From Candidatus Omnitrophica bacterium UBA6215 (lineage in GTDB: Bacteria > Omnitrophota > Gorgyraeia > Pluralincolimonadales > Pluralincolimonadaceae), in assembly GCA_002421665.1 (NCBI GenBank), contig DISH01000005.1, forward strand, positions 14,092-78,091: DNA of 64,000 nt. Reading direction: 5' to 3'. Below the pieces are notes generated by a model. It was not told the DNA's origin. It made no database searches and saw only the letters and a program-made list of their open reading frames with translations. The position numbers and the translations under genes were made by a program. Positions 7,114 to 56,480 of this stretch are shown piece after piece (position 1 is the first letter of the stretch; every line of letters begins with the position of its first letter).

Positions 7114-7143
7114 ATAATACCATAAAATAGCAATTTATTTCTC

Positions 7144-7943: not shown

Positions 7944-7954
7944 GAAAGAGAAAG

Positions 7955-40513: not shown

Positions 40514-40589
40514 GGCCCCTTCGTCTAGTGGCCTAGGACGGATGGTTCTCAGCCATTAAACACGGGTTCGATTCCCGTAGGGGCTACCA
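40514..40589 (+). tRNA. tRNA-Glu (anticodon CTC)
   Basis: Same architecture as E. coli tRNA-Glu (GUCUAG..GGCC.AGGAC D-arm, 4-nt variable loop, GGGTTCGATTCCCGT T-arm). Anticodon loop TTCTCAG. CCA encoded. Confidence 0.85.
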
Positions 40590-41288: not shown

Positions 41289-41316
41289 TTGACAAAACGA
41301 GCTCATGATATATAAT
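41289..41316 (+). promoter_or_regulatory. sigma70-type promoter TTGACA-16-TATAAT for the AraR-like regulator gene
   Basis: Consensus hexamers. A palindromic GAGTATAC element follows at 41323-41330. Confidence 0.45.
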
Positions 41317-41378
41317 ATAACCGAGTATACCAAGGTATATAATAACTGTTTTTTTGGACAAAAAAGGATGAGAAGAAT

Positions 41379-42482
41379 ATGAAAGACTCTATCGAGAAGA
41401 ATTCCCCCGTCCCCCTGTATAAGCAGCTTAAGCATATCATCGAGAACCAGATTAAGAGCGGGCAAAAGAAGCCGGGGGAGTTGATTTCTTCCGAAAAGGA
41501 ATTCTGTGAGGAGCACGGCATAAGCCAGATAACCGTCCGTAAGGCCATATTCGAGTTGGTCAACGAGGGCATTCTTTACAGGATCCCCGGGAAGGGGACT
41601 TTCATTTCAGGCCCGGAGCAGGGCCCAAGGAGCATATCCAGGTTAAAGACCGAGAACATAGGCTTCGTTATATCACGCGAACACCACCCGATATTTTCCA
41701 ATACGTTCTATTCATACGTATTTGCAGGTGTGGAAGAAGAGGCGCGCGCCCACGGCTACAACCTTATCTATCAAGTCCTTGACGAAAAGCTTATGTTCGA
41801 CCCCTCTACCTTCAAGCTGATAGAAGAGCGCAAGGTGGACGGACTGATACTTGCCGGGGAGATGTCACACAGCTTCGTATCCAATCTTAAGGCAAAGGAC
41901 ATACCCATTGTGCTTGTGGACCACTATATAGATAACTCCGGGCTTGATTCGGTCGTGACGGACAACACGAAGGGTGTCTGTGAGATGATCAAGTATCTTG
42001 CCGACCTTGGACATGAACGAATAGGTTTCCTCGGGGCCACCCTTGAGCACGGCTCCTTCATGGAGAGGTTCGAGGGATATAAGGCCGCCCTGAAGAAGAA
42101 CCGCCTGGACTTCAACGAGGAACTCGTCCAGACGGGACTGTTGTGGAACGGTTACGGCATAATGGAGAAGATGTTCCGACTTTCCAATATGCCTACGGCC
42201 ATATTTGCATGCAATGACCTTCTGGCTATACGTGCCATGGCAGCGATACAGGATAAGGGAATGAAGATACCGGATGATATAAGCATAGCGGGTTTCGATG
42301 ATATAGATATGAGCCAGCAAATACATCCGCCCCTTACGACCGTGCGAGTCCAAAAAGAAGAGATGGGCAAGACCGGCGTCAAAAGGCTCATACAGAGGAT
42401 CAAAAACAGCAGCAAGAAGCCCGAGAAGATAGTGGTGGCGACCGAACTTGTTGTCAGGAAGTCCTGTAAGTCGATCAAGTAA
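41379..42482 (+). CDS. AraR-like transcriptional regulator (GntR-family HTH fused to LacI/GalR-type sugar-binding domain)
   Basis: N-terminal GntR wHTH (PLYKQLKHIIENQI...ISSEKEFCEEHGISQITVRKAI) and C-terminal periplasmic-binding-protein type I fold with CNDLLAIRAMAAI...GFDD typical of LacI-family effector domains. Confidence 0.8.
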   Translation: MKDSIEKNSPVPLYKQLKHIIENQIKSGQKKPGELISSEKEFCEEHGISQITVRKAIFELVNEGILYRIPGKGTFISGPEQGPRSISRLKTENIGFVISREHHPIFSNTFYSYVFAGVEEEARAHGYNLIYQVLDEKLMFDPSTFKLIEERKVDGLILAGEMSHSFVSNLKAKDIPIVLVDHYIDNSGLDSVVTDNTKGVCEMIKYLADLGHERIGFLGATLEHGSFMERFEGYKAALKKNRLDFNEELVQTGLLWNGYGIMEKMFRLSNMPTAIFACNDLLAIRAMAAIQDKGMKIPDDISIAGFDDIDMSQQIHPPLTTVRVQKEEMGKTGVKRLIQRIKNSSKKPEKIVVATELVVRKSCKSIK

Positions 42483-42500
42483 CAGGAAGGGGGGCGGAAG

Positions 42501-43085
42501 ATGGCAGGAAGGATATTTTTTACCGTAGCGGTCACGGTACTCTGTTCATTGACTTATGCTCAGGAGCTGGTCTGGGAAGGTTTTGAAGGGAAGAACAACT
42601 GGGTTATGGTCGAATGGCGCAATTCGGGCAGGGGGAAGATGGAGATATCAGAAGAGCAGTCTACCGAAGGCGCCAAATCCCTGAAGGTTATAATGAACAG
42701 GGAAAGAAAGACCTACAGGGATAAGGTGGGGGTATCGAGGGAAGGATACCTAAACCTGGCCAGGGCGGATAAGGTGATAATGGACGTTTACTGCAAATCT
42801 GACGACGGCCTTGCCGTATCGATAGCTTTTGATATAGGCGATAAGGGAAATTACTATGAATCCGTCAAAAGGCCGTTAAAAAGGGGTTGGAACAAGGATA
42901 TCAGTTTTGACCTGGCGGCTGATTATTTCAAATGTGAGGGCAGCGACTGGAAATACGACAAGTCTATACCCGACAGGAGCAACATAACCAAGATGCATAT
43001 AATAATATACAGGCCTTCGAATATCATTTTTGAGGAGACCGTGTATATAGATAATATAAGGATAGACCAGAAGAAGCCCGTATAG
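42501..43085 (+). CDS. small secreted protein consisting of one uncharacterised CBM-like beta-sandwich module (copy 1)
   Basis: Signal peptide. Motifs VWEGFEGKNNW, KSLK, RGWNKDISFDL, FKCEGSDWK, YIDNIRID are shared with six other copies in the window. Confidence 0.7.
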   Translation: MAGRIFFTVAVTVLCSLTYAQELVWEGFEGKNNWVMVEWRNSGRGKMEISEEQSTEGAKSLKVIMNRERKTYRDKVGVSREGYLNLARADKVIMDVYCKSDDGLAVSIAFDIGDKGNYYESVKRPLKRGWNKDISFDLAADYFKCEGSDWKYDKSIPDRSNITKMHIIIYRPSNIIFEETVYIDNIRIDQKKPV

Positions 43086-43120
43086 GGGACGCATTTGCTC
43101 CGCGAACAAGGAGAAATTGG

Positions 43121-43681
43121 ATGAAAAGAGCGGTTTTTTTCGCTATATTGACGGCAGTAATGCTGTTCATGTATGTCTCTGTACATGCAGAGGTATTTGA
43201 CAGTTTCGAGGGGGTCAATGATTGGGGCTTCGAGAGCTGGGATAACGTCGGCGGGGTCGCGCTGTCGATAAGCGCGGAGAAGGCTTCCGACGGCAAGCAG
43301 TCGCTAAAGGCAGTCGCCAAAGAAGAACAAGAGGACTGGAAGAACAGGTTTGTGTTATCCAGGGATGCCTCGCTGGACCTTTCCGGTTCGGATATGTATA
43401 TGGACATCTATACTGATGCTTCTTCCGGGATGTCGGTTGCCGTAGCATTCGATACCGGCGGGGAATATTATGAGTCCGAAGGCAAGATCCTCAACCAGGG
43501 TTGGAATAGGGACATAAAGTTCGACCTCTCTGCAAAAGATTTCAAGTGCAAGGCAAGCGACTGGAAAAATTCGGTTCCGTTAGCAGACAGGAGCGATATA
43601 AGCAAGGTCTTCGTACTTGTGCAGCATCCGAAGAAAATGAAGGGCGCTACGGTATTCATCGATAATATAAGGTTTAAGTGA
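43121..43681 (+). CDS. small secreted protein consisting of one uncharacterised CBM-like module (copy 2)
   Basis: Signal peptide. VFDSFEGVNDW, QSLK, NQGWNRDIKFDL, FKCKASDWK, FIDNIRFK. Confidence 0.7.
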   Translation: MKRAVFFAILTAVMLFMYVSVHAEVFDSFEGVNDWGFESWDNVGGVALSISAEKASDGKQSLKAVAKEEQEDWKNRFVLSRDASLDLSGSDMYMDIYTDASSGMSVAVAFDTGGEYYESEGKILNQGWNRDIKFDLSAKDFKCKASDWKNSVPLADRSDISKVFVLVQHPKKMKGATVFIDNIRFK

Positions 43682-43704
43682 GATACTAGGACCGGTCGGT
43701 CTCA

Positions 43705-46119
43705 ATGATCAAGAGCATAGCGTTAACCATGTCTGTATTTGTTTTGGCGGCCTTTATATCCCCTGCAGAGGCGGGCATAGTCTCAATAACGGCGGACCGG
43801 GAAGAAGTGCCGGAATTCGGGAAATTGGAAATTACGGTCGGGCTTGACATTGTTTTTTCCAATCCGTTCGACCCGGAAGAAGTGGATCTGTCGGCGGTAT
43901 TTACGGGTCCTGCGGGCAGGTCATATATGGTTCCGGGTTTCCTGTATTCGGCGCAACAGGATTCATCCATGAGTTATATTAACCCCGTCTGGAAGATCAG
44001 GTTCTCTCCATGCTGTAAGGGAACTTGGAAGTATGAGGTGCGCGTGAGGACGAAAGACGGCGCGGAAAATTCCGAGGGGAAAAACTTTGAATGTGTACCG
44101 TCAAAAGCGAAGGGATTCATAAGGGTGAGCGCAGCGGATCCCCGCTATTTCGAATTTACCAACGGGGATTTCTATTATCCTGTCGGCGAGAACATATGCT
44201 GGGCATCTCTGCCCGGTTTCAGGAAATATTTCGCCGGAATGCAGAAGGCCGGGTGTAATTGGACGAGGGTATGGATGTCGAACTGGGAATCGGGATTGGA
44301 GTGGACCAAGGGCTCCGGATACAGGGGACTTGGCAGGTATAATCTCGAGAAAGCAGATAAATTGGATAAGATAATAGAGCTTGCGCAGGAACACGGCCTG
44401 TACGTGCAGCTTGTGATCAACCACCACGGCCAGTTAAGTACCAGGGTAAACCCGCAATGGGATGATAACCCCTATAATGCCGGGAACGGCGGCCCATGCA
44501 AAGAACCCAAGGATTTTTTTACCGATCCCTTGGCAAAAAAACATTTCAAGAACAGGATGCGCTATATCGTGGCACGCTGGGGATACAGCCCTAATCTAAT
44601 GGCATGGGAATTATGGAATGAATTGACATTCATCGATGACCTTGACCTCGAAAGGGACGCAGCTTGGCACAAGGAAATGGCCTCGTATATCAAGGAGACC
44701 GACCCTTACAAACACTTGATAACCACGAGTTACGCCGGGACCTTTCACGATTACGGTTTTAACGAAAAAGTCTGGGAGATACCCGAGATAGATTATACGC
44801 AATTCCATATGTATACGCAGGATGTCGTCTCGGCTATAATAGGCGCCTACAGGCTTATGAGCCGGTTCGACAAACCGTATTTCATGGCGGAGATAGGTAC
44901 GGATTCGACCGAGGGCGTAGACAAGAAAGACCTCGACGGCGCTTACCTCCATGCGGCTATCTGGTCGGAATATATGCTTTCCTGCGCAGGCAACGCGATG
45001 CCTTGGTGGTGGGACAGCTACGTGCATCCGAGGGGTATGTATTACCATTGGGCGGCGCTTACGGCTTTTAACCGGGGGACCGACAGGAGGGGCAAGGGAT
45101 ATTGCACGTCGACATCACGCGTGCTTGCAGAGATCGAAGGGTTGAAGACGTCCGTGTCCGCAGTAGGCATGATGAACGACAGGGAAGCTTTTATATGGGT
45201 CTTCGACCCGAAATGGACCAGGTTTGAACCGGGCCATCCGGAGCCTCCGGAGATAAAGGATGCATCGGTGAGGATAAACGGTATGGCCGGAGGAAGATAT
45301 CTGATAGAATTCTGGGATACGTTGTCCGGGGCAGTAACGGGAAAAGTGGAAAAGGGTTCCGATGAGAACGGGCTGGACATAACCATCCCTCCTTTCAGAA
45401 GAGATATCGCGGTTAAAGTAATACCCGTTGAGGTCAAGTCTTCCGGCCGCAGGAAGGCAGCCCTGGCAGATACTGTTCCCGCACCTATCGGTTTTTCCAG
45501 GCAGTCTGTAACGGCCGGGAGGGCGAGACAGCATATAAAAGTAGATGGCGACCTTTCGGAATGGTATCTGTCCGGTTTTGCCGGCGACCGGATAGCCTCG
45601 GCGGATAAAGGTGCTGCCAGGTTCTACCTTTTATATGACAAAGACAACCTTTATCTGGCCGCTGAGGTCGAGGATGAGTCCGTTATAGGCAACCAGAGCG
45701 GCGTTGACATTTGGCGTGATGACGCGATAGAGTTCTGGATAGACGCCCGGGGGGACGCGGATACATTCAATAACATGCCTTTCAACCCGGGTTGCTACCA
45801 GGTGAATATCGCGCCTATTACAAAAGACGGGACCGCGGGTGTCTATGTTTACAGGAATATCAATACGAGGTCTCTCGCGGAAGCGGTCAAAGCCGCCTCA
45901 AAAGTATCGTCCGACCCTAAGAAACCGGGCTATACCATAGAAGCGGCTATACCGATACGCTCAGTTGACGGACTTGAATTGAAGGACGGCAAGACCCTCG
46001 GAGTGAATTTTTCCGTTACCGACAGGGACACGGAAAAAGGACAATGGCGTCACGTCATATGGTCGGGGCAACGGGAGGATGACGCCACGCAATGGGGCAT
46101 ATTGAAGGTAAAAAACTAA
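43705..46119 (+). CDS. secreted glycoside hydrolase: N-terminal beta-sandwich (DUF5060-like) + GH-A clan TIM barrel (DUF4038/GH5-like) + C-terminal CBM9-like domain
   Basis: Signal peptide. WELWNELT (putative NE acid/base), W-rich TIM-barrel motifs. C-terminal ~190 aa DGDLSEWY...RFYLLYDKDNLYLAAEVEDESV...WRDDAIEFWID resembles the CBM9/DOMON-like fold. Paralog of the central region of 53394..56267. Confidence 0.65.
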   Translation: MIKSIALTMSVFVLAAFISPAEAGIVSITADREEVPEFGKLEITVGLDIVFSNPFDPEEVDLSAVFTGPAGRSYMVPGFLYSAQQDSSMSYINPVWKIRFSPCCKGTWKYEVRVRTKDGAENSEGKNFECVPSKAKGFIRVSAADPRYFEFTNGDFYYPVGENICWASLPGFRKYFAGMQKAGCNWTRVWMSNWESGLEWTKGSGYRGLGRYNLEKADKLDKIIELAQEHGLYVQLVINHHGQLSTRVNPQWDDNPYNAGNGGPCKEPKDFFTDPLAKKHFKNRMRYIVARWGYSPNLMAWELWNELTFIDDLDLERDAAWHKEMASYIKETDPYKHLITTSYAGTFHDYGFNEKVWEIPEIDYTQFHMYTQDVVSAIIGAYRLMSRFDKPYFMAEIGTDSTEGVDKKDLDGAYLHAAIWSEYMLSCAGNAMPWWWDSYVHPRGMYYHWAALTAFNRGTDRRGKGYCTSTSRVLAEIEGLKTSVSAVGMMNDREAFIWVFDPKWTRFEPGHPEPPEIKDASVRINGMAGGRYLIEFWDTLSGAVTGKVEKGSDENGLDITIPPFRRDIAVKVIPVEVKSSGRRKAALADTVPAPIGFSRQSVTAGRARQHIKVDGDLSEWYLSGFAGDRIASADKGAARFYLLYDKDNLYLAAEVEDESVIGNQSGVDIWRDDAIEFWIDARGDADTFNNMPFNPGCYQVNIAPITKDGTAGVYVYRNINTRSLAEAVKAASKVSSDPKKPGYTIEAAIPIRSVDGLELKDGKTLGVNFSVTDRDTEKGQWRHVIWSGQREDDATQWGILKVKN

Positions 46120-46136
46120 AAAGACAAAAGGAAAAA

Positions 46137-48182
46137 ATGAAGAAAAAAGCGGAAATAAAGGAAGGCATATTCTATCTCGGAGGAAAACCAACGTTCCTTG
46201 TAAGCGCGGATTACCCTTATTATCGCGATGATGCCGCGAACTGGAACGACAGGTTAAAGAAGATAAAAGATGCCGGGATCGATGCCGTTACGTTCTATAC
46301 TCCCTGGAGGCACCATGTTCTAAGGGACGGAGAAGGTTTCATCGAGGATTTCAACGGCAAGACGCGCCCGAACCGCAACGTTGAACTGTTCCTTAAATTA
46401 TGCCGTGACAACGGCCTTTGGGCTATAGTAAAACCCGGGCCTTTTATACATGCAGAGTTGACGTTCGGAGGTCTTCCGGATTGGGCTGCCGCCGAAAAAA
46501 GCTCCGGCCTGGAGACCTTCCCGAACAACAAGGGCGAGCCTATGCTCGACCCGTTCCGTAAACCAGACACATACGGCAGGCCCATGCCCGCCCCTCTTTG
46601 TAAAAAATTCAGGTCGATGACCAGGCAGTGGTACAAGACCGTATATGACAAAGTGATAAAAGGCAATATATATCCGGAAGGCAATATAATAGCGGTTCAG
46701 GTCTGCAACGAGGGGCTCTATTCCAACGGGCCTGCCTCGATAACCGATTATGATTATTCGGACTCATCGCTTGAACTATTCAGGAAATTCACCGGACGAA
46801 AGGACCTGAAGGTAGCAAGGAGGCTCTACGGGATAAAGAGGCTTTCCGACCTCAAGGACTACCTTGATTGGGCCAGATGGCAGTCGGAGTATATGAGGTT
46901 AATATATACGGAATTCTCCGCGGTCGTCCACGGCAAACTACCTATCGTAATAAATATCAATCCTCCGTGCGAGGGCAGGAAGCTTGACCATTGGCTGACC
47001 AGGGTAATACCGGAGAACTGGCCTACGATAAACTACGGTTTTACGAACTGGCTGCGGCCCGTTTCCGAGGACCGTTCATCCTTTGATCGTTACAGCCTTT
47101 TATCCAAGCGCAAAAGAGGCATAAATTTCGAGGAGAACTGGGGATTTTCCAAGATATACGATTACCATTTCCAGTATCCCGTGATCTGCGTATTCGAGAC
47201 CATGCTGGCGATAGCAAACGGAGCGACCGGCTTCAATGTCTATACCGCAGTCAATACCGCCTCATGGGATGATTCCATAGACAGCCAGCATGAAAGACCG
47301 TATCCGGATTCTTCTCCCATAAAAGAAGACGGTTCGCTGACCAAAAAGTACGAAGTATTAAGCCTTATATCGCATTTCTTTGAGACCGAGGGCCCCGCCT
47401 TCCTTAAATGTTCCGCAGATACGCCTATAGCGTGGGGCTTTTATCCGCCCTATGCGTTCCTGGCGGCGTGGGACATACCTAAGGAAGACTGGGACAGGCT
47501 TCACATGGACCCGGTAAGGTGCGGTTATGAAGGGTTGGACAAGTTCCAAAGGGTACTTAGGGACCGGAACATCGATTTCCATATAGTCAATCTTGAGACC
47601 GCCAGCCTAAAGGAATTGAAGCAGAATAAATTCATAGTCCTTAACGGCGGTTTCTTCATGGACAGGAAGACCCAACAGAAACTTGCCTCTTTTGCGGCGG
47701 GAGGCGGAAAGGTTATATTCATAGGAGAGACGCCCCGCGCGGATGAAAATTTCAATGACTGCAGGATATCACAGAAAAACAGTTTCTGTTTGCTTAAGAT
47801 AGAGGATATAGGCGGAATATTGGCGCGTTATCATTCAAAGCTTAAGGTTAACGACCCCGAGACCCAGGTATGGGCTTATGACGATCCCGCTTCCGATACG
47901 CAGTTTTTCTTTATCCTTAACCTGTCGATAAACGCGGGTGCCCGATACTTCGATTATGACGGCGTAAATGGGAGTGTTGTAATGCCGGATAAATCCGCGG
48001 CTGTGATCAAGGTCAAGAAGGGCAAGCTTGATTCACTGTTTATAAAAGGCATCAACGAGATGAACAATACGTCAGTGGTCCCGGCGGCCTCGTTCGGCAG
48101 GGATGTTTTCAGGTCGGAGAAGGCATGTGACGTCCTGGCTTACAGGAAGGCGAATAAATGGCAGGCAAAAATCGTATTATAA
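46137..48182 (+). CDS. GH35/GH42-like beta-galactosidase family protein (cytoplasmic)
   Basis: GH35 N-terminal pattern: YPYYR...W.DRLKKIKDAGIDAVTFY.PW..H, then AIVKPGPFIHAELTFGGLPDW and VQVCNEGLY (compare VQVENEYG, acid/base Glu). No signal peptide. Start set to ATG 46137 after the upstream stop. Confidence 0.65.
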   Translation: MKKKAEIKEGIFYLGGKPTFLVSADYPYYRDDAANWNDRLKKIKDAGIDAVTFYTPWRHHVLRDGEGFIEDFNGKTRPNRNVELFLKLCRDNGLWAIVKPGPFIHAELTFGGLPDWAAAEKSSGLETFPNNKGEPMLDPFRKPDTYGRPMPAPLCKKFRSMTRQWYKTVYDKVIKGNIYPEGNIIAVQVCNEGLYSNGPASITDYDYSDSSLELFRKFTGRKDLKVARRLYGIKRLSDLKDYLDWARWQSEYMRLIYTEFSAVVHGKLPIVININPPCEGRKLDHWLTRVIPENWPTINYGFTNWLRPVSEDRSSFDRYSLLSKRKRGINFEENWGFSKIYDYHFQYPVICVFETMLAIANGATGFNVYTAVNTASWDDSIDSQHERPYPDSSPIKEDGSLTKKYEVLSLISHFFETEGPAFLKCSADTPIAWGFYPPYAFLAAWDIPKEDWDRLHMDPVRCGYEGLDKFQRVLRDRNIDFHIVNLETASLKELKQNKFIVLNGGFFMDRKTQQKLASFAAGGGKVIFIGETPRADENFNDCRISQKNSFCLLKIEDIGGILARYHSKLKVNDPETQVWAYDDPASDTQFFFILNLSINAGARYFDYDGVNGSVVMPDKSAAVIKVKKGKLDSLFIKGINEMNNTSVVPAASFGRDVFRSEKACDVLAYRKANKWQAKIVL

Positions 48183-49693
48183 AAGCGGTCCTTATCGCAG
48201 CGATCCCGGCCCTATTATCACAGGCCCGGGCCGATGAAGGGAGACTCGTTTACCTTAACCCTTTTACGGTAGCGGCTTCGTCTTTTGATGACAGTGAGTG
48301 GGCGCCGGAACCCGAGCCTTCGGCCGTATCCGACGGCGATTTCAACACTCGCTGGTCATCCGTCATGGGCAAGGATAACGAATGGATATACCTTGACTTC
48401 GGTAAGCAGAAGACCGTTACGGAAGTTATTATATACTGGGAACGTGCTTATGCTACGGAGTTCGAGATACAGTCATCCGATGACGCAATGAACTGGAAGA
48501 CCATCGCCCGGGTGAAAAACGGAAAGGGCGAGAAAGAGACGGTTTCAGTCCCCAAGACGACTGCGCAATACCTCAGGCTGGTCGGCTTAAAGAGGGTCAA
48601 CCCCGACTGGGGGTTCTCGGTCTGGGAGTTCGAGGCGTACGGTCCGCCAGAGCTCAATCCCCAGGACTTTCCGGTCGAGGAGGTGTTCCCCGGCAGGAGG
48701 CCGCGAGAAGAGGTCAAGCTTGTTATGGAGGAACCGGTGAGGTCACCCGGGGCCATCGGGCCCGGGGAGTTCCAAAAAGGCGTCAATTATTCGTCTTATA
48801 ATGAGGTGGACCTTGCCCTGCAGGAATCCGATGAAATACTGGCTTATCTCAAGACGATGAACGTGACGGATGTATGCATTATCGTGACGTGGTACCAGGA
48901 CAGCCTGGAGTCGATGTCCATGTCGCCTGATGCCGTCGGAGGAAGGACCCCGCGCGACGAAGCGCTCATCCATGCTATAAATAAGGCGCATTCCCTGGGT
49001 TTCAAAGTTATGTTAAAGCCTCATATAGACATACAATCCGGCGAGTTTCGCGGGGATATCCCCGGCGAGGAAGAATGGTTCGGGAATTACGGAGATTTCA
49101 TATTGAAATATGCAGGCATCGCGCAAAAATTCAATGTCGAACTCTTCTGTATCGGGACCGAGCTTTCCGGCACTCCTACAAAATGGGAACCAAACTGGAG
49201 GAAGATCATAAAGGATATACGCGCCGTATACTCCGGGCCGATAACCTACGCCGCGAACTGGGACGAATACAAATATGTCCCTTTCTGGAACGACCTGGAT
49301 TATATGGGCATAGACGCCTATTTCCCCCTTACCAACAAGAATGAGCCTTCGAAAGAAGAACTCCTTGTTGCCTGGAAACGGGAGGCAGATAATATAGAAA
49401 ATTTTTTGAAGAAGAAAGGCATAAACAAACCGGTCATCTTTACCGAAGCCGGTTATGCCAGTTCGGACGGCGCCAACAAGAGGCCGTGGGAAGTCACATC
49501 TAAGACCGAAGACCAGAGGGAGCAAGCGGACTGTCTGGATGCGCTTATGACGGTCATGACAAATCGGGTGTGGTTTTCGGGACTTTACGTGTGGAATGTA
49601 TTCCCCCAGGATATCTCCAGCCCGCTTGGTTTCCCGGTTAAGGGGAAATTGGCTGAAAAGATACTTGCCGACTGGTATGCGAAGCTGAAGTAA
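48158..49693 (+). CDS. secreted F5/8 type C (discoidin, CBM32-like) domain + GH-A clan TIM-barrel glycoside hydrolase
   Basis: Signal peptide. Discoidin signature FNTRWSS...EWIYLDFG...VWEFEAYG. C-terminal TIM barrel with FTEAGY (nucleophile-like TE) and WNDLDYMGIDAYFP. Paralog of 50372..51553. Confidence 0.65.
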   Translation: MAGKNRIIKAVLIAAIPALLSQARADEGRLVYLNPFTVAASSFDDSEWAPEPEPSAVSDGDFNTRWSSVMGKDNEWIYLDFGKQKTVTEVIIYWERAYATEFEIQSSDDAMNWKTIARVKNGKGEKETVSVPKTTAQYLRLVGLKRVNPDWGFSVWEFEAYGPPELNPQDFPVEEVFPGRRPREEVKLVMEEPVRSPGAIGPGEFQKGVNYSSYNEVDLALQESDEILAYLKTMNVTDVCIIVTWYQDSLESMSMSPDAVGGRTPRDEALIHAINKAHSLGFKVMLKPHIDIQSGEFRGDIPGEEEWFGNYGDFILKYAGIAQKFNVELFCIGTELSGTPTKWEPNWRKIIKDIRAVYSGPITYAANWDEYKYVPFWNDLDYMGIDAYFPLTNKNEPSKEELLVAWKREADNIENFLKKKGINKPVIFTEAGYASSDGANKRPWEVTSKTEDQREQADCLDALMTVMTNRVWFSGLYVWNVFPQDISSPLGFPVKGKLAEKILADWYAKLK

Positions 49694-49718
49694 AGGTACG
49701 GGAAAGGAGGCAGTAACG

Positions 49719-50303
49719 ATGGGCAGGTTAATGGCAGCAGCATTGCTGGTCGCGTCACTTCTTGCGTTGAGCAGTGTCCCTCACGCGGCTGAAACGGTGC
49801 TCTTCGGGTTCGAGGATGACACCGGGGGTTGGCGCGTCCCTGATTGGGCGCTTGAAAAAGAAGACCATGTAGCGAGGGACCTCTCCCTCTCTACCGATTG
49901 GGCTTCCGAAGGGAAGAAGTCCATGAAGGTCACTTCCGAGTTCCTCGGGGGCAAATGGTCGGGCGCGTATGTCGAGATAGAAGAATATTTCGACTGGTCG
50001 CCTTACAGCAAGCTTTTGGTCGATGTGTACATACCAAAAGATGCCCCGGCCGGGCTTAAAGGTAAGATAATCCTTACCGTAGGTGATGAGTGGAAATGGA
50101 CCGAGATGAGCAAGACCGTGCCGCTTACCCCGGGCCAAGTCACCACGATAACGGCCGATATAGCCCCGGGAAGCAAGGATTGGAAGAACACGATCGTCGA
50201 TGATAACTTCAGGAAAGATGTCCGGAAATTCGGTGTAAGGGCGGAAAACAACAGGACCGAGTGGAAGGGCGCCTATTATGTCGACAACATAAGGTTGGAA
50301 TAA
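49719..50303 (+). CDS. small secreted protein consisting of one uncharacterised CBM-like module (copy 3)
   Basis: Signal peptide. LFGFEDDTGGW, KSMK, KDWKN, YYVDNIRLE. Confidence 0.65.
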   Translation: MGRLMAAALLVASLLALSSVPHAAETVLFGFEDDTGGWRVPDWALEKEDHVARDLSLSTDWASEGKKSMKVTSEFLGGKWSGAYVEIEEYFDWSPYSKLLVDVYIPKDAPAGLKGKIILTVGDEWKWTEMSKTVPLTPGQVTTITADIAPGSKDWKNTIVDDNFRKDVRKFGVRAENNRTEWKGAYYVDNIRLE

Positions 50304-50313
50304 TGGCTGTTAC

Positions 50314-50351
50314 GCGGGGCCGCAAAAACCGGCCCCGCGCGACACCTTTTA
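50314..50351 (+). terminator. rho-independent terminator
   Basis: Perfect 9-bp GC stem GCGGGGCCG-CAAAAAC-CGGCCCCGC (50314-50338) followed by TTTTAT. Confidence 0.65.
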
Positions 50352-50371
50352 TAAGTCTTAAGGAGAGCAAG

Positions 50372-51553
50372 ATGTTTTTCAGGAGAAAGTTATTAATATT
50401 CATTCTGGTAGCAGCCGCGTTCCTGGCCGGCTACCTGGCCAGCGTAATGGCCCCGCGCGTGTCCTCGCAGAAGCCGGTCGAGACCAAGTTTGCTTTTGGC
50501 GCGGGAAAGAAGGTGTCCGGAGCTCCTCAGGAAGCAGCCGGTCCCTCAAGGGAGCAGGCCCCTGCGGCCGCGGCCCAGAAAAAAGTAGACAGGCCCCCTT
50601 TCCCTCAATTCCAGAAAGGGATGACCTATGTGACATGGGACAGGTCCGCGTACGGCAAAGGTTTTTCAGACATGTCCCTGGAAAAACTCGCCTCGATAGG
50701 CTGTGGTTATGTTGCCATAATAACCACCTGGTACCAGGGTGATTATAATATTACCCAGATAAAGCGGGGAGGCAGCACGCCTACCGATGAAAGCCTGATA
50801 CATGCAATAGAGTCGGCGCATAAAGCGGGCTTAAAGGTCATGCTTAAGCCGCACCTTGACCTTGTAAAAGGCGGCTGTTGGAGGGGGGAGATACAATTTG
50901 GCAACGATACCGATTGGGAAACATGGTTTGCCAGCTACGGGGATTTCATAACTCACTACGCTAAACTTGCGGAAGATAACGGTGTAGAGATATTCTGTAT
51001 CGGAGTGGAGCTTACGGTGCCCGCGGTAGAGAAGCCGGATATGTGGGTAACGAAAGTCATAGAGCCCGTGAGGAAAGTTTTTTCAGGCCCGATAACTTAT
51101 GCAGCGAACTGGAACGAGGAATACCAGAACGTTGAATTCTGGGATAAGCTCGATTATGCAGGTTTGGACGCCTATTTTCCTCTTTCTGATAAAGAAGACC
51201 CGTCGCTCGATGACTTGAGGCAGGGATGGAAACCCCATATGGAAGCTATCGAAACCTGGCAGAAGTTCATAAATAAGCCGGTCCTGCTTACCGAGGTAGG
51301 TTATAAGAGTTCAACGGGCACGGCCAGGACCCCGTGGGAGCACCAGCTCGGCAGGGAAGTGGATCTGAAACTGCAAAGCGATTGCTACACGGCTATGTTG
51401 GAAGCTTTTTGGGATAAACCCTGGTTTTATGGGATGTACTGGTGGTATTGGGGGACGAATGATAGAATGGGAGGCAGCACCGACCGCGGGTTCAATGTGC
51501 AGAACAAACCTGCGCAGGCCGTGGTCAGGGATTGGTACGCCAAAGGGCGCTAA
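50372..51553 (+). CDS. membrane-anchored/secreted GH-A clan TIM-barrel glycoside hydrolase (paralog of the 48158 catalytic domain)
   Basis: AGGAGA RBS before ATG 50372. N-terminal signal anchor. LLTEVGY, WDKLDYAGLDAYFP and YAANWNEEY motifs shared with the 48158 protein. The track ORF start 50261 is rejected. Confidence 0.65.
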   Translation: MFFRRKLLIFILVAAAFLAGYLASVMAPRVSSQKPVETKFAFGAGKKVSGAPQEAAGPSREQAPAAAAQKKVDRPPFPQFQKGMTYVTWDRSAYGKGFSDMSLEKLASIGCGYVAIITTWYQGDYNITQIKRGGSTPTDESLIHAIESAHKAGLKVMLKPHLDLVKGGCWRGEIQFGNDTDWETWFASYGDFITHYAKLAEDNGVEIFCIGVELTVPAVEKPDMWVTKVIEPVRKVFSGPITYAANWNEEYQNVEFWDKLDYAGLDAYFPLSDKEDPSLDDLRQGWKPHMEAIETWQKFINKPVLLTEVGYKSSTGTARTPWEHQLGREVDLKLQSDCYTAMLEAFWDKPWFYGMYWWYWGTNDRMGGSTDRGFNVQNKPAQAVVRDWYAKGR

Positions 51554-51568
51554 AAACAGGAGGATAAT

Positions 51569-52498
51569 ATGAGGTTTGTCTGCAAGAAATACGAAAAGAA
51601 CCCGATAATAACAAAAGAAGATATGCCTTACCCGTGCGAATGCGTATATAACGCGGGTGCGGCAAAGTACAAGAATAAATATATACTCTTGCTCAGGGTT
51701 CTTCTGCTTAACGGTAACTGCGTATTCGGGCTCGCCGAGAGCGATGACGGTTTCGATTTCAGGATCCACCCGAAACCGGTTATGGTCCCGGCGACTACAG
51801 GGCCTTTCGCCAGGTATGAGGAGAAGGGCATCGAAGACCCGCGTATCACCAAGATCGGGGACACCTATTATATCTTCTACAGCTGCTATTCAGGGCTCGG
51901 GATGAGGATAGGGCTCGCCAAGACCAAGGACTTCAGGAAATTCGACCGTATCGCCATGACGACCACCATAGATTATCGCAATTCGGTCCTGTTCCCGGAG
52001 AAGATCAACGGCAAATATTGCCGTTTCGAGCGCCCGAACGTGGGACGCCAGGGGATATGGGTCTCTTACTCTCCGGACCTGATACATTGGGGCGAGCAGG
52101 AGCATATAATGGCCCCTTACGGCAACCATATTTGGGAAGACCATAAGATCGGCGCCGGCGCTCCGCCTATCAAGACCAAGAAGGGCTGGCTGAGTATCTA
52201 CCACGGCGTTACCTGGACGATGGACGGAATGACTTACAGGCTTGGAGCAGCTATGCATGACCTGAAGAACCCGGCAAAGATCCTCGGGATAGCCGACCAA
52301 TTCATACTCAGCCCCGATGAGATCTTTGAAAGGGTGGGGTATGTCCATAACGTCGTTTTTACCTGCGGCGCAATACCCGAACCTGACGGGACGGTCAAGA
52401 TATATTACGGCGGTGCCGATACGGTAATGTGCGTTGCCGTTGCAAAAATAGAAGACCTTATAGATATAGCGCTTAAAGGCAAGAGGAAACCGCTATAA
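51569..52498 (+). CDS. GH130-family glycoside phosphorylase (beta-1,4-mannoside phosphorylase-like)
   Basis: 309 aa, no signal peptide. NPIITKEDMP...VYNAGAAKYKNKYILLLRV N-terminus and VVFTCGAIPEPDGTVKIYYGGADTVMCVAVAKIEDL C-terminus are characteristic of the five-bladed beta-propeller GH130 family. Confidence 0.75.
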   Translation: MRFVCKKYEKNPIITKEDMPYPCECVYNAGAAKYKNKYILLLRVLLLNGNCVFGLAESDDGFDFRIHPKPVMVPATTGPFARYEEKGIEDPRITKIGDTYYIFYSCYSGLGMRIGLAKTKDFRKFDRIAMTTTIDYRNSVLFPEKINGKYCRFERPNVGRQGIWVSYSPDLIHWGEQEHIMAPYGNHIWEDHKIGAGAPPIKTKKGWLSIYHGVTWTMDGMTYRLGAAMHDLKNPAKILGIADQFILSPDEIFERVGYVHNVVFTCGAIPEPDGTVKIYYGGADTVMCVAVAKIEDLIDIALKGKRKPL

Positions 52499-53397
52499 AA
52501 TATTATCTCGGGATTGACATAGGTGGCACGAACATCCGCCTGGGTGTCGTAGACGGCCGCGGCAAGGTACTGGCAAGATATCGGATGCCTACCTTGAGAA
52601 GGCAGGGAAGGGACAGGGTCATATCGAGACTGTTCGACGCCATAAAGGATATCGCGGCGTCGTATGACATAAAAGCGATAGGGATAGGTTGCCCCGGACC
52701 GCTTGACAGTAAAAAGGGGATAGTGCTCTCTCCTCCTAATCTGCCCGGCTGGCGCAACGTGCGGATAAAAGAGATGGTCGGCAAGAGGTTCCGCGTCCCG
52801 GCGGCGGTCGAGAACGATGCCAATTGCGCGGGGTTGGGGGAATCCGTTGCCGGCGCAGGGAAGCGCGCCTCGAGCATGGTCTTGCTTACTCTCGGCACTG
52901 GTATAGGCAGCGCAATAGTCCTGGAAGGGAGATTATGGACGGGTAAGGGAGGCTTTGCTTCCGAGTTGGGCCACGTATCGGTGGATATTAACGGTCCGAG
53001 ATGCGAATGCGGCAACAGGGGCTGCATAGAATTATATGCTTCGGCAACAGGAGTCGTCCGCCGCATGAAAAAGGCATCCTGGAGCAAGGCTGCCTTGACG
53101 GCTGAGGATGTATTTCGCAATGCCGGCAGAGGAGACAAGAAAGCGCGCAAGATAGTCGATGAGACGGCCTATTACCTTGGGTGCGCGCTTGCCAATATAG
53201 TTAACGCGCTGGACCCCGAGCTTATAGTGCTTGCCGGAGGAATGACAAGGGCCGGGCGCGGATTTGTGCGCAAAGCCGAACAAATAATGAGGAAGAGGGC
53301 TTTGAGGGAATCATCACGAGCAGTCAAAGTAACTGTCTCTAAACTTGGAGATGATGCCGGTTTGATCGGCGCCGCTTGGAGGGCGAAGGAGCTATGA
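52495..53397 (+). CDS. ROK-family sugar kinase with non-canonical start codon (or 5' disruption)
   Basis: The conserved ROK N-terminus YYLGIDIGGTNIRLGVVDGRGKVL (52501-52572) lies upstream of the first in-frame ATG (52585). The frame opens at 52477 with no ATG/GTG/TTG. In-frame ATA at 52495 sits 7 nt after an AGAGGA SD. ROK motifs ENDANCAGLGE and CECGNRGC (Zn) are present. The 5' boundary is uncertain. Confidence 0.6.
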   Translation: MKYYLGIDIGGTNIRLGVVDGRGKVLARYRMPTLRRQGRDRVISRLFDAIKDIAASYDIKAIGIGCPGPLDSKKGIVLSPPNLPGWRNVRIKEMVGKRFRVPAAVENDANCAGLGESVAGAGKRASSMVLLTLGTGIGSAIVLEGRLWTGKGGFASELGHVSVDINGPRCECGNRGCIELYASATGVVRRMKKASWSKAALTAEDVFRNAGRGDKKARKIVDETAYYLGCALANIVNALDPELIVLAGGMTRAGRGFVRKAEQIMRKRALRESSRAVKVTVSKLGDDAGLIGAAWRAKEL

Positions 53398-56267
53398 AAA
53401 GAATACTGTTAACCGTGTTCACTGGTGTTGTAGCATCGGTATTTTTGCAGGTCTTTGCGTTCTCTGCCGCGACGGAAGCGGTCCCGGCGGCAGGAGGGAC
53501 CGAAACCATCGTCTGGGACAGTCTTGAGTCGAAACACCTCTGGAGCATAGCCCAGTGGGGCGACGCCGCGAAACTGGCCGTAGCCCCTGACAATAAGACC
53601 GAGGGCGAAAAATGTTTCAAGGTGTCGTTCGGGCCGGAAGGCAAGCAGAACCCGCCGAAGGGCGTAGTCCTTGAGCGCGAGCAGTCGGCAATAGACCTCG
53701 ATACGTCCAAAAAACTTACCGTCGATGTATATAATGACGGCCCGCCTCTCGAGATGGCGCTTGTACTGTATACCGATGAATTCATAGAAAGCTCCACGGC
53801 GACCATAAAGAAAGGGTTGAACAAGGACATAACCTTCGACCTCCATGCCAAGGACTTCAAGAGTCCCACGAGTAAATGGCAGTATAATTATTCTCCTCGT
53901 CCCGGAACGATCGCGTGGCGCATAATGTTCATAATGTATACGGAAGACCCGGACATCAAAAGCACGGTATGTTTCGATAATATACGCCTTGAAAGGACGC
54001 CGAGGATAACCAGCGAACAGAAGATAATTGCCTTGGCCGATTACAAAGAGCCAAGGATAACCGCGGTAAAGACCGGCAATGAGAAAGTCGAGCAGTACGA
54101 GAAACTGGAGATCACCGTGGATTTCGAGGGAACCTACCAGTACCCCTATAATCCCGATAATATAGACCTGACGGCTTACTTTACGGCCCCTGACGGGAAA
54201 AAATATATCATGCCGGGCTTCCTTTATTCGGGGAAGGTGGACGGGGTCAACATCTCCGACGCGGTTTGGAAGGTGAGGTTCACGCCGGTGATAGCCGGGG
54301 AATGGGAATACTACGTAGAGGTCAGGAACCCGAAAGGCAAGGCGAAGTCGGAGAAATTTTCATTCGAATGCTTTGCCCCCGCATCGCCCAAGAAGGGTTT
54401 CGCGCGTATAAGCAGGAGAGACCCCTTATTTTTTGAGTTCGAGAACGGGGAGTATTATTATCCGATAGGCCAGAACGTGGCGTGGGCGCCGTCGGTGCAG
54501 ATGTTCGACCATTATTTCTCAAAGATGCACGAGAATATGTATAACTGGACGCGCGTCTGGATGTCAAGCTGGCAATGCGCGATAGAATGGCTGGATGTCG
54601 GGGATTACCACGGGCTTAACAACTATAACCTGAAGAACGCGAAATTGCTCGATGATATAACCGACCTGGCGAAGAAATACGACCTGTATTTCCAGCTTGT
54701 CCTTAACCAGCACGGGCAGTTGAGCACTAAGGTCGATCCCGAATGGCTCAATAACCCGTATAACAAGAAAAACGGCGGTCCATGCGAGAAGCCGGCTGAT
54801 TTCCTTACTGATCCCGAGGCGAAGAGGTTGTATAAGATGCGCATGCGTTATATAGTGGCCCGTTGGGGGTATTCTACCAACATACTCGCTTGGGAGCCGT
54901 GGAACGAGCTGACCCTCATGGACAACTATGACTCGAACCTGGATATCCCCTGGCAGAAAGAGATGGGCTGTTACCTGAATTCCATCGATCCTTACAGGCA
55001 CATGATAACGACCAGCTATTTCGGGAACTTCCCTAAGGAGATATGGAAACTGCCGGAGATAAGCTATGGGCAGATCCATATGTATACCCCGGAGATAGTT
55101 ACCACCCTGGACGGTCTTTACATGATAATGAAGGATTACAAGAAGGCCTATTTCGTCGGGGAATACGGCGGAAGCAACCTCAGCGGAATAGACATCCAGG
55201 ATCCCGATGCGACCGTCCACCACAACGGCATATGGGCTGCCTACATGACCGTGTCCTCCGGCGATGCCATGCCCTGGCAATGGGACGATTATATCGACCC
55301 GAGGAACCTGTATTTCCACTGGCGCGCACTTTCCAAGTTCAACGAGGGCGAGGACAGGCGCGGACAGAAATACCAGTACAGCCGCGGCACCATGGAGTTC
55401 GATGACGGGACCATATTGATGGCACAGGGCATAATGAACAACAATAAGGCCCTGGTATGGGTCTATGACCTTTATGCTACCAAGTTCAATCAGGGGGAGT
55501 TCAAGCCGCTTGACGTCAAGGGCGCCGTCCTGACCGTGGCGGGAATGGACAAAGGCGACTACAAGATAGAGTTCTGGGATACCTACAAGGGTATCGTGAC
55601 AGGCACGGCCGATACAAAATGCGACGGCAGGAAACTCGATATCCCGCTGCCTGAGATAAAGAAGGATATTGCGGTCAAGATCACGGCCTGCAATGAAAAT
55701 GCGCGCCCAAGGTCGGGCAAGATATACATTGAATCGAAATATGCAGAGAAAGACGTCCCTGAAGAACCGCGCAAACTTTGGGAAGGTTTTGAGGTACAGG
55801 GGGACTGGGATTACGCCGGCTGGGGCGATAAAGTGAAAGTATCTCTTGCCGGTAATAAGGTAACGGAAGGGAAAAAAGCGATCAAGGTTGTCTTCGACAA
55901 AGCGGGCAGGAGGACCGACGGGAAAGGTATCTGTGTCCAGAATACCAAGCTGAACCTTGACCTGTCGAAAGAGAAGAAGATGGTATTTGATGTCTATCTC
56001 GATGCGCCTAACTCCATAGAGGTATCGGTCGTACTTAACAGCAAAGGTTTCTGCGAAAGCGTGCGCAGGATCATAGTCCCCGGCTGGAACAGGAATATCA
56101 CTTTTGACCTTAAGGCAAGGACGTTCAAGAAAGAATCTACCAAGTGGCAACACAAAGGAGAGATAGACAGGGAAGAGCCGATGAAGGAAGTGATGTTCAT
56201 GTTCTACCCGTGGGATGTGGAATCGGGGAGCTTCTATATAGACAACGTAGGGTTCCTGAATAATTGA
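53394..56267 (+). CDS. secreted multidomain glycoside hydrolase: CBM-like module (copy 4) + DUF5060-like beta-sandwich + GH-A TIM barrel + CBM-like module (copy 5)
   Basis: ATG 53394 overlaps the ROK stop (ATGA) and follows a GAAGGAG SD. Signal peptide. N-module 53500-54000 (TIVWDSLESKHLW...GLNKDITFDL...CFDNIRLE). Central region is paralogous to 43705..46119 (WEPWNELT). C-module 55776-56264 (LWEGFEVQGDW...PGWNRNITFDL...YIDNVGFL). Confidence 0.7.
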   Translation: MKRILLTVFTGVVASVFLQVFAFSAATEAVPAAGGTETIVWDSLESKHLWSIAQWGDAAKLAVAPDNKTEGEKCFKVSFGPEGKQNPPKGVVLEREQSAIDLDTSKKLTVDVYNDGPPLEMALVLYTDEFIESSTATIKKGLNKDITFDLHAKDFKSPTSKWQYNYSPRPGTIAWRIMFIMYTEDPDIKSTVCFDNIRLERTPRITSEQKIIALADYKEPRITAVKTGNEKVEQYEKLEITVDFEGTYQYPYNPDNIDLTAYFTAPDGKKYIMPGFLYSGKVDGVNISDAVWKVRFTPVIAGEWEYYVEVRNPKGKAKSEKFSFECFAPASPKKGFARISRRDPLFFEFENGEYYYPIGQNVAWAPSVQMFDHYFSKMHENMYNWTRVWMSSWQCAIEWLDVGDYHGLNNYNLKNAKLLDDITDLAKKYDLYFQLVLNQHGQLSTKVDPEWLNNPYNKKNGGPCEKPADFLTDPEAKRLYKMRMRYIVARWGYSTNILAWEPWNELTLMDNYDSNLDIPWQKEMGCYLNSIDPYRHMITTSYFGNFPKEIWKLPEISYGQIHMYTPEIVTTLDGLYMIMKDYKKAYFVGEYGGSNLSGIDIQDPDATVHHNGIWAAYMTVSSGDAMPWQWDDYIDPRNLYFHWRALSKFNEGEDRRGQKYQYSRGTMEFDDGTILMAQGIMNNNKALVWVYDLYATKFNQGEFKPLDVKGAVLTVAGMDKGDYKIEFWDTYKGIVTGTADTKCDGRKLDIPLPEIKKDIAVKITACNENARPRSGKIYIESKYAEKDVPEEPRKLWEGFEVQGDWDYAGWGDKVKVSLAGNKVTEGKKAIKVVFDKAGRRTDGKGICVQNTKLNLDLSKEKKMVFDVYLDAPNSIEVSVVLNSKGFCESVRRIIVPGWNRNITFDLKARTFKKESTKWQHKGEIDREEPMKEVMFMFYPWDVESGSFYIDNVGFLNN

Positions 56268-56321: not shown

Positions 56322-56350
56322 TTGACAAAGGAATCTTAAAATGGTATTAT
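56322..56350 (+). promoter_or_regulatory. sigma70-type promoter TTGACA-17-TATTAT for the second PEP-CTERM gene pair
   Basis: Consensus hexamers in a 210-bp very AT-rich intergenic region. The ~130-nt leader carries two copies of the palindrome AGTATACT (56373-56380, 56440-56447). Confidence 0.5.
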
Positions 56351-56480
56351 TTCCCCGAAATAGTTATACCAGAGTATACTTGCCTTGTTATCTAATACTT
56401 AGTTAAACTTTATCCAAACATCTTTTGTTTTTATAACATAGTATACTCGGTTATACTAATCAGTGAAAGGGGGCGGTATA

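Follow-up and report, generated by a model that had tools for sequence, protein, structure and literature searches.

A probable beta-mannan utilisation locus in a bacterium of the candidate phylum Omnitrophota

Contig DISH01000005.1 of Candidatus Omnitrophica bacterium UBA6215 (assembly GCA_002421665.1) was analysed over a stretch of 64,000 nucleotides (nt; positions 14,092 to 78,091, forward strand), which is called the window here and within which positions are counted. From position 41379 to the window end, 18 consecutive genes lie on the + strand in two units. Together they are interpreted as a beta-mannan utilisation locus whose most likely substrate is linear beta-1,4-mannan or glucomannan, a reading in which we place moderate confidence. 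The extracellular half of the locus would represent ordinary mannan chemistry, while the half responsible for uptake and cytoplasmic processing appears to be a new variant whose specificity is not settled by the sequence. Gene order, domain families, catalytic residues, signal peptides, paralogy, the shared palindrome, the recurrence of the gene set in Omnitrophota genomes and the host phylum are shown directly, whereas we infer which polymer is used, what each of the cytoplasmic enzymes does and that the genes are co-regulated. The window and 8 kb of DNA downstream of it were scanned; gene families were assigned by Pfam and paralogy by BLASTP. An earlier reading of the same DNA, the first-pass annotation, had listed eleven genes between 41379 and 56267. 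All of them were recovered on the + strand, separated by short gaps, with positions that equal those given there or differ by a few codons. Transport and anchoring genes had been placed after 56267 and were found there, namely two genes for PEP-CTERM proteins and those for a GspK-like/LamG protein, a binding lipoprotein and two permeases. The features are as follows (GH, glycoside hydrolase; CBM, carbohydrate-binding module; HTH, helix-turn-helix; AF2, AlphaFold2; ORF, open reading frame; ABC, ATP-binding cassette; SBP, solute-binding protein; T2SS, type II secretion system; aa, amino acids).

41289..41339, +: promoter 1 with palindrome; TTGACA-16-TATAAT (12/12), then the 24-bp palindrome TATAACCGAGTATACCAAGGTATA
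41379..42482, +: AraR-type transcription regulator; GntR HTH 50.6 bits, Peripla_BP_3 126 bits (Pfam)
42501..43085, +: sCBM_a, secreted stand-alone CBM protein; signal peptide, paralogy, AF2 fold
43121..43681, +: sCBM_b, secreted stand-alone CBM protein; signal peptide, 37% identical to sCBM_a (E 2e-45)
43705..46119, +: secreted protein with DUF5060, ManDH5-like GH5 and CBM9; 9GMJ E 2.5e-86
46137..48182 (ORF also from 46092), +: cytoplasmic GH35 of the IaSGT/GlmA branch (GH35L); N-terminal part of GH35 plus GLMA_2nd
48158..49693, +: secreted F5/8 type C (CBM32-like) domain plus GH113; GH113 180.8 bits, F5_F8_type_C 80 bits, signal peptide
49719..50303, +: sCBM_c, secreted stand-alone CBM, Mann_GBD_bact; PF21253 E 1.2e-9
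50372..51553 (ORF also from 50261), +: GH113, membrane-anchored or secreted; 216.8 bits, N-terminal hydrophobic helix
51569..52498, +: cytoplasmic GH130 mannoside phosphorylase (predicted), E/R clade, 309 aa; R43, E89, D90, R137, N138, R155, H212, D284
52496..53397, +: ROK-family sugar kinase, glucokinase-like; ROK 229 bits, TIGR00744 208 bits (below the cutoff of 260)
53394..56267, +: secreted 957-aa protein with CBM, DUF5060, ManDH5-like GH5 and CBM; 9GMJ E 1.6e-83
56322..56455, +: promoter 2 with operator copies; TTGACA-17-TATTAT with TG (11/12)
56463..57110, +: PEP_a, PEP-CTERM-anchored Mann_GBD-like protein; Mann_GBD_bact 5.6e-7, PEP-CTERM 7.9e-7
57107..57778, +: PEP_b, PEP-CTERM-anchored Mann_GBD-like protein; 30% identical to PEP_a
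57830..60208, +: GspK-like (T2SS minor pseudopilin K) protein with C-terminal LamG; weak T2SSK, HHH_3 and Laminin_G_3 matches
60209..61072, +: secreted 287-aa protein without family assignment
61082..62329, +: CUT1-type solute-binding lipoprotein (SBP); SBP_bac_1, LAGC lipobox
62326..63228, +: ABC permease 1 (Pfam)
63230..64000, +: ABC permease 2; truncated by the window boundary, full length 294 aa
5648..8581, +: exosortase EpsH, DUF3485 (EpsI-like) and a further pair of PEP-CTERM proteins; the locus lies 50 kb downstream

Exported enzymes and binding modules

Four exported proteins of the locus carry catalytic domains that had been annotated broadly as GH-A TIM barrels. The enzymes are present and can be placed more specifically, two of them in GH113 and two in GH5 next to ManDH5. 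Both GH5 proteins match the PDB entry 9GMJ, and the entry titles give this structure as ManDH5, the beta-D-mannanase (GH5) from Dictyoglomus thermophilum, which was solved with mannobiose and mannotetraose. The remaining PDB matches of the 43705 sequence were GH5 mannanases, and this protein carries the precomputed assignment PF26410 (GH5_mannosidase). Its AF2 model, with a predicted local distance difference test value (pLDDT) of 91.9, superposed on ManDH5 with TM 0.89 over ~570 columns in Foldseek, at an identity of ~29%. W277, E278, N281, E282 and E372 were invariant among 20 diverse homologues, covering the acid/base motif WELWNE and the nucleophile Glu. Like ManDH5 (PDB 9GMJ, 9GPA, 9GPC-9GPG), the window proteins combine an Ig-like DUF5060 N-domain, a (beta/alpha)8 barrel with catalytic NE plus Glu and a C-terminal beta-sandwich; they differ from it by signal peptides and by an added CBM9 or two flanking Mann_GBD-like CBMs. 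On the strength of this likeness, 43705 and 53394 are predicted to be ManDH5-type GH5 enzymes that hydrolyse beta-1,4-mannosidic bonds.

The two GH113 domains (48158, 50372) scored far above the cutoff of 27 bits for PF22612, and their top PDB matches were AaManA (3CIV) and further endo-beta-1,4-mannanases, with no other kind of enzyme among them. In the 3CIV alignment the catalytic Glu motifs correspond (GVELT/GCEMT and LTEVGY/FMEVGC), the GH113 paralogue reading GTELS and FTEAGY. Since a survey of 511 GH113 sequences revealed essentially single-domain proteins only, fused domains being very rare (PMC9032380), the F5/8C-GH113 fusion is unusual. It is kept in Omnitrophota metagenome-assembled genomes (MAGs) and in the related locus L093 (3537-13473 of a 1.99-Mb contig from another lineage), whose orthologue is 43% identical and which further comprises a regulator, an N_methyl protein, a CBM27/Mann_GBD protein, a second GH113 and an SBP. 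The suspected paralogy of 43705 with 53394 and of 48158 with 50372 proved to be real (46% and 44% identity by BLASTP), and both copies of each pair are present in related MAGs.

For the stand-alone proteins 42501 and 43121, no Pfam match was obtained. BLASTP nevertheless united them with 49719 and with the modules at either end of the 53394 protein as paralogues (E 1e-7 to 1e-45), and PEP_a and PEP_b fall more weakly in the same family. The module that had been described as new on the 53394 protein thus exists, but it belongs to the family of the stand-alone proteins. The AF2 model of sCBM_a (pLDDT 79) is a beta-sandwich whose top PDB match was the CBM in 1WKY, a mannanase from Bacillus JAMB-602 (TMq 0.71), followed by CBM11, CBM4 and CBM22. 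The L093 orthologue of sCBM_c (53% identity) matches CBM27 as well. Seven mannanase-type CBMs are therefore counted in the locus, three stand-alone, two fused in the 53394 protein and two PEP-CTERM-anchored, beside one CBM9 and one F5/8C domain. The two anchored proteins, 56463 and 57107, contain PF07589 and end in VPEPAS...KKGRR and RKKRA, respectively, and an exosortase is encoded in the window (EpsH, 203 bits at 5648-6481). The machinery at 5648-8581 is the predicted sorting system needed by these two proteins.

Uptake and cytoplasmic enzymes

Against the beta-1,4-mannan reading speak the residue signature, the equal distance to two specificities and the distant neighbourhoods of the GH130 protein, the nearest relatives of the GH35 protein and of the SBP, several missing enzymes, the lack of a recognisable passage through the outer membrane and the existence of a GH113 clade without known substrate.

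The GH130 protein has neither a signal peptide nor a catalytic base, as expected of a GH130 phosphorylase, and the residues typical of GH130 phosphorylases (D90, R155, H212, R43 and D284) were invariant in 122 sequences. Its top PDB match, full-length and at 217 bits, was TM1225, a GH130_2 beta-1,4-manno-oligosaccharide phosphorylase. With TM1225 and RaMP2 it shares a short N-terminus, an Asp as proton donor, the Arg/His that bind phosphate, and Arg137-Asn138, which aligns with their RN and supplies the Arg at the R150 position, where beta-1,2 enzymes have KD. However, the residue ahead of the catalytic Asp is Glu89 (GIE89-D90-PR) instead of the Tyr in YDPR of TM1225 and RaMP2, and the loop after Arg155 (RPSDxGHTPFGD there) is four residues shorter. 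Throughout GH130_1 and GH130_2 this Tyr (Y103 in UhgbMP) shows strict conservation (PMC4264767), and the window protein lacks it. According to a published residue rule, partly validated by experiment, the pair Y/R indicates beta-1,4, E/K beta-1,2 and E/R beta-1,3 linkages (PMC7660257). The pair E89 and R137 is thus the published beta-1,3-mannoside signature, and each of the 120 nearest homologues, which come from many phyla and are 56% or more identical, carries it too. Neighbour-joining placed the protein in a separate clade with 37-42% core identity to the GH130_2 enzymes TM1225 and RaMP2, the core being equally distant from TM1225 (beta-1,4) and Teth514_1788 (beta-1,2), at 42% each. The assignment to GH130_2 suggested by the TM1225 match was dropped after residue mapping and the tree. 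That the enzyme acts on beta-1,4-manno-oligosaccharides, as first annotated, cannot be assumed in view of the E/R pair (PMC7660257). The annotation had itself made its proposal depend in part on the clustering of this protein, and the outcome was partly adverse, with a position apart from GH130_2 and Glu in place of a strictly conserved Tyr.

The neighbourhoods of its relatives vary. Those at least 65% identical lie in loci with GH113 and ManDH5-type genes, and one relative adjoins a GH30 gene. More distant members of the E/R clade are found between GT4 glycosyltransferases, outside catabolic loci. In L096 (7743-13476) and L097 (7761-13498), which belong to a Bacteroidota-like genome with Por-secretion-tail proteins and a Spirochaetota genome, homologues of 58-61% identity form a conserved cassette of GT4 (746 aa), GH130 (309 aa), GT4 (336 aa) and a reverse-strand GH130 (~490 aa) that looks biosynthetic or recycling rather than catabolic. 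ManDH5-like GH5 genes of other phyla (L026, L030, Bacteroidota) adjoin a Tyr-type GH130. In L093, an E/R GH130 (67% identical) has a canonical Y/R GH130_2-like enzyme as its immediate neighbour, an arrangement suggesting that the two types are not redundant there. The window protein is therefore best described as a predicted mannoside phosphorylase that is neither GH130_1 nor GH130_2 and whose cleaved linkage is not settled.

It is conceivable that the locus targets a microbial or fungal beta-mannoside glycan with beta-1,3 or mixed beta-1,3/1,4 linkages rather than plant beta-1,4-mannan. The GH5 and GH113 enzymes would then cut the glycan and the E/R GH130 would phosphorolyse Man-beta-1,3-Man/Glc, which would fit the predatory or scavenging lifestyle of a phylum widely proposed to consist of predators or parasites (PMC10066038). 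The signature shared by all close homologues and the different jobs suggested by the L093 pair argue for this view, as does the experimental validation of the E/R rule for U7 and its agreement with Zobellia_231 (PMC7660257). By the residue rule, the window enzyme resembles Zobellia_231 (GH130_5) and U7 (GH130_13) in the E/R pair at the +1 subsite and the intact phosphorylase machinery, but unlike those beta-1,3 enzymes it stands in the context of beta-1,4-mannanase homologues. Wherever a function is known among relatives of the CBMs or the four secreted enzymes, these relatives act on, or were solved with, beta-1,4-mannan or beta-1,4-manno-oligosaccharides, and the residue rule was built on very few beta-1,3 enzymes. 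We consider this explanation unlikely, though it is the strongest of the alternatives.

The cytoplasmic GH35 protein matches PF01301 over no more than profile positions 2-104 of 319. Its nearest relatives are the beta-1,2-glucosyltransferase IaSGT (130 bits) and archaeal GlmA enzymes (110-115 bits), which align in two stretches (E 8.1e-37 to 8.4e-30). N206-E207 (acid/base), E347 (nucleophile), Y69, E122, N288 and Y384 were conserved in 120 homologues, the residue roles being taken from PMC8861115. The Asn ahead of the acid/base Glu corresponds to N175-E176 of IaSGT and not to the amino-group-binding Asp of GlmA (D178 in TkGlmA); furthermore, the NCBIfam GlmA model gave 134 bits against a cutoff of 1500. 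His120 occupies the place of Leu100 in IaSGT. The protein is predicted to be a retaining exo-glycosidase or transglycosidase, and its -1 sugar is probably gluco-configured, because the -1 subsite of IaSGT and GlmA is conserved and Asn precedes the acid/base. In one related MAG, a rearrangement has placed the GH35 gene ahead of the regulator gene, where it still adjoins the locus. The genomic contexts of distant homologues of GH35L (in Cohnella, Anaerobacterium and Alicyclobacillus) are uninformative on the substrate.

The previous description of this protein as a galactosidase is not supported, given its proximity to IaSGT and archaeal exo-beta-glucosaminidases: classical beta-galactosidases align to residues ~25-140 only, that is, over ~110 residues of the N-terminal part, with E 1e-18 or worse. 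This bears on the possibility of a galactomannan pathway in which GH35 would be a cytoplasmic beta-galactosidase and GH130 a GH130_2-type beta-1,4-manno-oligosaccharide phosphorylase. GH35 is mostly a beta-galactosidase family, the homologues are automatically annotated 'beta-galactosidase', and TM1225 is the best single PDB match of the GH130. Binding of galactose is frequent among F5/8C (CBM32-like) domains, which also counts in favour of galactomannan. Its alpha-1,6-galactose side chains require an alpha-galactosidase, which is a GH36 in Roseburia (PMC6385246). Neither GH36 nor GH27 was present in the window or the 8 kb downstream, the GH35 lies in the IaSGT/GlmA branch, and the GH130 lacks the Tyr of GH130_1/2 and forms a separate clade. 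Because of the missing alpha-galactosidase and the GUS-like nature of the GH2 encoded downstream, galactomannan is unsupported and this pathway very improbable. The original proposal of mannan or galactomannan is upheld in its beta-mannan part, all four secreted catalytic domains falling in mannan-specific groups, and is unsupported as to galactomannan.

The top PDB match of the SBP was the beta-1,2-glucooligosaccharide binder Lin1841 of Listeria innocua (E 2.2e-43; 152 bits compared to at most 112 for other sugar SBPs), which binds Sop3-5 (PMC12369401). None of its 60 best PDB matches was a manno-oligosaccharide binder. In Ignavibacterium album, IaSGT is clustered with a homologue of Lin1841 (PMC8861115). 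The window locus resembles the clusters of IaSGT (IALB_1185) and of Lin1839-1843 in having a cytoplasmic GH35 of the same branch together with a Lin1841-like SBP. It differs from them by the lack of beta-1,2-glucanase and GH94 genes. The SBPs of L093 and L094 are not orthologous to that of the window (22-25% identity); hence, the SBP is interchangeable rather than diagnostic in mannan-type loci. A second function, in which the SBP and GH35 would handle beta-1,2-gluco-oligosaccharides and the locus would serve two glycans or a heteroglycan, is suggested by these top matches and the I. album cluster, yet it is the least probable alternative and highly doubtful, since both similarities are remote, no endo-beta-1,2-glucanase family member is encoded, the SBP is not diagnostic and the key +1 residue of IaSGT, Arg349, is variable among the GH35 homologues.

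An acetyl esterase, a mannobiose 2-epimerase, GH130_1 or GH130_2 enzymes, a beta-mannosidase, a phosphomannomutase and a mannose-6-phosphate isomerase were all absent from the window and the 8 kb downstream. In the locus itself, no route for passage through the outer membrane was identified, the sole envelope-related components being the GspK-like/LamG protein and the PEP-CTERM system. Moreover, clades 1-4 of GH113 are mannan-specific but clade 5 has no known substrate (PMC9032380), and the two GH113 domains may belong to either group.

The ROK kinase had been recognised in the first-pass annotation, but with an ORF (from 52585) that lacks the ATP-binding N-terminus. The ATP-binding motif IKYYLGIDIGGT lies in frame upstream of this position and is not preceded by ATG, GTG or TTG. 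An ATA at 52496 overlaps the TAA stop of the GH130 gene as 'ATAA', comparable to an ATGA overlap, with a Shine-Dalgarno-like AGAGGAA 7 nt upstream, and this ATA codon is the probable start. As the junction CCGCTATAA is conserved in L012-L014, whose ROK orthologues are only 65-76% identical, it is not a sequencing error. Gene callers begin the ROK protein 30-33 residues too late.

Organisation, regulation and conservation of the locus

Intergenic gaps range from -25 to +68 nt within 41379-56267, and a gap of 195 nt precedes the gene at 56463. Each of the two units is situated behind a near-consensus promoter and a common 24-bp palindrome. The promoters at 41289-41316 (12/12) and 56322-56350 (11/12) were the two best sigma-70-like promoters in 17 kb scanned. 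Behind both, the palindrome has the form TATAAC-N3-GTATAC-N3-G(T/G)TATA. The second promoter is followed by a perfect palindrome, TATAACATAGTATACTCGGTTATA, at 56432-56455, and a related 16-mer occurs at 56365-56380. The exact 15-mer TATAACCGAGTATAC was found at only two sites in the 64 kb, the promoter 1 region and 56441-56455. An identical 24-mer precedes the regulator gene in L010, L011 and L012, and L012 also contains a second operator copy; the regulator is 86-98% conserved in these three loci and 38% in L093. The first gene was confirmed as AraR-like by the architecture of its product, an N-terminal GntR HTH fused to an effector domain of the LacI/periplasmic-binding-protein type. The palindrome is a candidate operator of this regulator. 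Since it stands behind both promoters and the 24-mer is conserved in related loci, the two units may be governed by one GntR-type repressor. A scan of the locus with Rfam yielded no riboswitch.

The same locus was detected on several metagenome contigs, with orthologous gene sets of 65-98% identity in Omnitrophota MAGs. One close MAG, L010, is labelled Planctomycetia, which we regard as an outlier. That the host is not a member of the Bacteroidetes, as annotated before, is supported by the DXS protein of the window, which is identical to MFA5093823.1 from a Candidatus Omnitrophota MAG (NCBI). The protein clusters that hold the RNase Y and the GH130 of the window also include NCBI-named Omnitrophota members. 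Neither a SusC/SusD pair, the hallmark of polysaccharide utilisation loci in Bacteroidetes, nor a TonB-dependent transporter was encoded by any ORF between 38726 and 64000 or downstream.

Between the binding modules and the transporter genes lie two genes of less clear function. The GspK-like/LamG protein (792 aa) has a pseudopilin-like N-terminal hydrophobic helix and may serve secretion or surface glycan capture. Homologues of this protein (64%) and of the 60209 protein (57%) are conserved alongside the ABC transporter in the Omnitrophota MAG L020. Two long antisense ORFs without Pfam match, 54564-56153 (- strand, 529 aa, within the GH5 gene) and 52503-53150 (- strand, 215 aa, within the ROK gene), are probably composition artefacts.

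Beyond the window (L007, 11880-17488), permease 2 is followed by a LacI regulator gene and a gene for a 1529-aa GH2 protein with Glucodextran_C. This GH2 was considered as a beta-mannosidase and member of the locus and rejected, its PDB relatives being beta-glucuronidases, galacturonidases and galactosidases and its regulator its own LacI protein.

The genes in 1-41300 comprise housekeeping genes, an RND efflux system and the exosortase cassette, and the following RNA genes were identified in the window.

14762-14949: 6S RNA, 100 bits
8733-8809: tRNA-Val (GAC)
31818-31891: tRNA-Gln (CTG)
38614-38701: tRNA-Leu (GAG)
40514-40589: tRNA-Glu (CTC)

The tRNA-Val gene covers the start listed for the ThrRS ORF, and translation of ThrRS therefore probably begins further downstream. 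Read from its first ATG, the infC (IF3) ORF at 10627-11085 aligns with the IF3_N profile from position 12 onward. It probably uses a non-canonical upstream start, as seen for infC in many bacteria.

Proposed pathway and relation to known systems

Under the preferred reading as a beta-mannan locus, the polymer would be captured by the seven mannanase-type CBMs, three of them free, two flanking GH5 and two fixed to the surface by the PEP-CTERM/exosortase system, with further binding by the CBM9 and F5/8C domains. The four exported endo-mannanase homologues (two ManDH5-like GH5, two GH113) would cleave the backbone to oligosaccharides, which would enter through the CUT1 ABC importer consisting of the lipoprotein SBP and two permeases. 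In the cytoplasm, the GH130 would take off the non-reducing mannose as alpha-mannose-1-phosphate, the IaSGT/GlmA-type GH35 would remove or transfer a gluco-configured residue, and free hexose would be phosphorylated by the ROK kinase. Extracellular depolymerisation, ABC import and intracellular phosphorolysis had been proposed previously, and this logic fits the signal-peptide pattern: the six CBM-bearing or GH5/GH113 proteins and the three stand-alone CBM proteins all possess a signal peptide or an N-terminal anchor, whereas GH35, GH130 and ROK have none.

The kind of locus is known from Roseburia intestinalis (MULL/MULS) and from the related mannan systems of Faecalibacterium and Ruminococcus albus (PMC6385246). 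Common to these and the window locus are a surface mannanase with mannan-binding CBMs, a CUT1 ABC importer (SBP and two permeases), GH113, cytoplasmic GH130 phosphorolysis giving mannose-1-phosphate (predicted for the window), a regulator of their own and the absence of SusC/D. By contrast, four exported mannanase homologues (ManDH5-type GH5 and GH113) stand in the window locus where Roseburia has one GH26, and GH113 is exported, while RiGH113 is an exo-oligomannosidase acting on imported manno-oligosaccharides (PMC6385246). The CBMs are partly stand-alone and PEP-CTERM-anchored, unlike in Roseburia. A single E/R-type GH130 replaces the trio of GH130_1, GH130_2 and epimerase, and the IaSGT/GlmA-type GH35 takes the place of GH3 beta-glucosidases; by analogy, a gluco-configured GH35 would parallel the latter and favour glucomannan. 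The GH36, the esterase and the phosphomannomutase of Roseburia are missing, and the host is a diderm member of the Omnitrophota. The locus departs from the known kind in its Omnitrophota host, in CBM proteins that are multiplied and in part exosortase-anchored, in GH113 enzymes that are exported and fused, in the E/R GH130 and in the IaSGT/GlmA-type GH35.

A more far-reaching proposal, which we put forward only tentatively and hold to be possible rather than probable, is that the widespread E/R GH130 clade of 309-aa proteins, the IaSGT/GlmA-type GH35 and the ROK kinase form a previously undescribed cytoplasmic route for oligosaccharides derived from mannan and that the free and PEP-CTERM-anchored CBM proteins are the Omnitrophota counterpart of the surface glycan-binding proteins of Bacteroidetes. 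Such a route could consist in the direct phosphorolysis of mannobiose or mannosyl-glucose without epimerase and GH130_1, or the bond attacked could be of a type different from beta-1,4. If this proposal is true, species of a phylum held to comprise predatory or parasitic nanobacteria would live as polysaccharide degraders.

For the enzyme families, the locus provides a genomic context for uncharacterised IaSGT/GlmA relatives in GH35. It also points to a GH130 clade, with at least 120 sequences from many phyla, in which residue signature and genomic context contradict each other and which is a good test case for the published rule. The CBM-only proteins, some of them exosortase-sorted, are candidate glycan-capture proteins. 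Mannan loci that depend on ABC transport are well known from Firmicutes; here, a complete, conserved and apparently co-regulated polysaccharide locus is present in Candidatus Omnitrophota, a phylum in whose main survey glycoside hydrolases go entirely unmentioned (PMC10066038).

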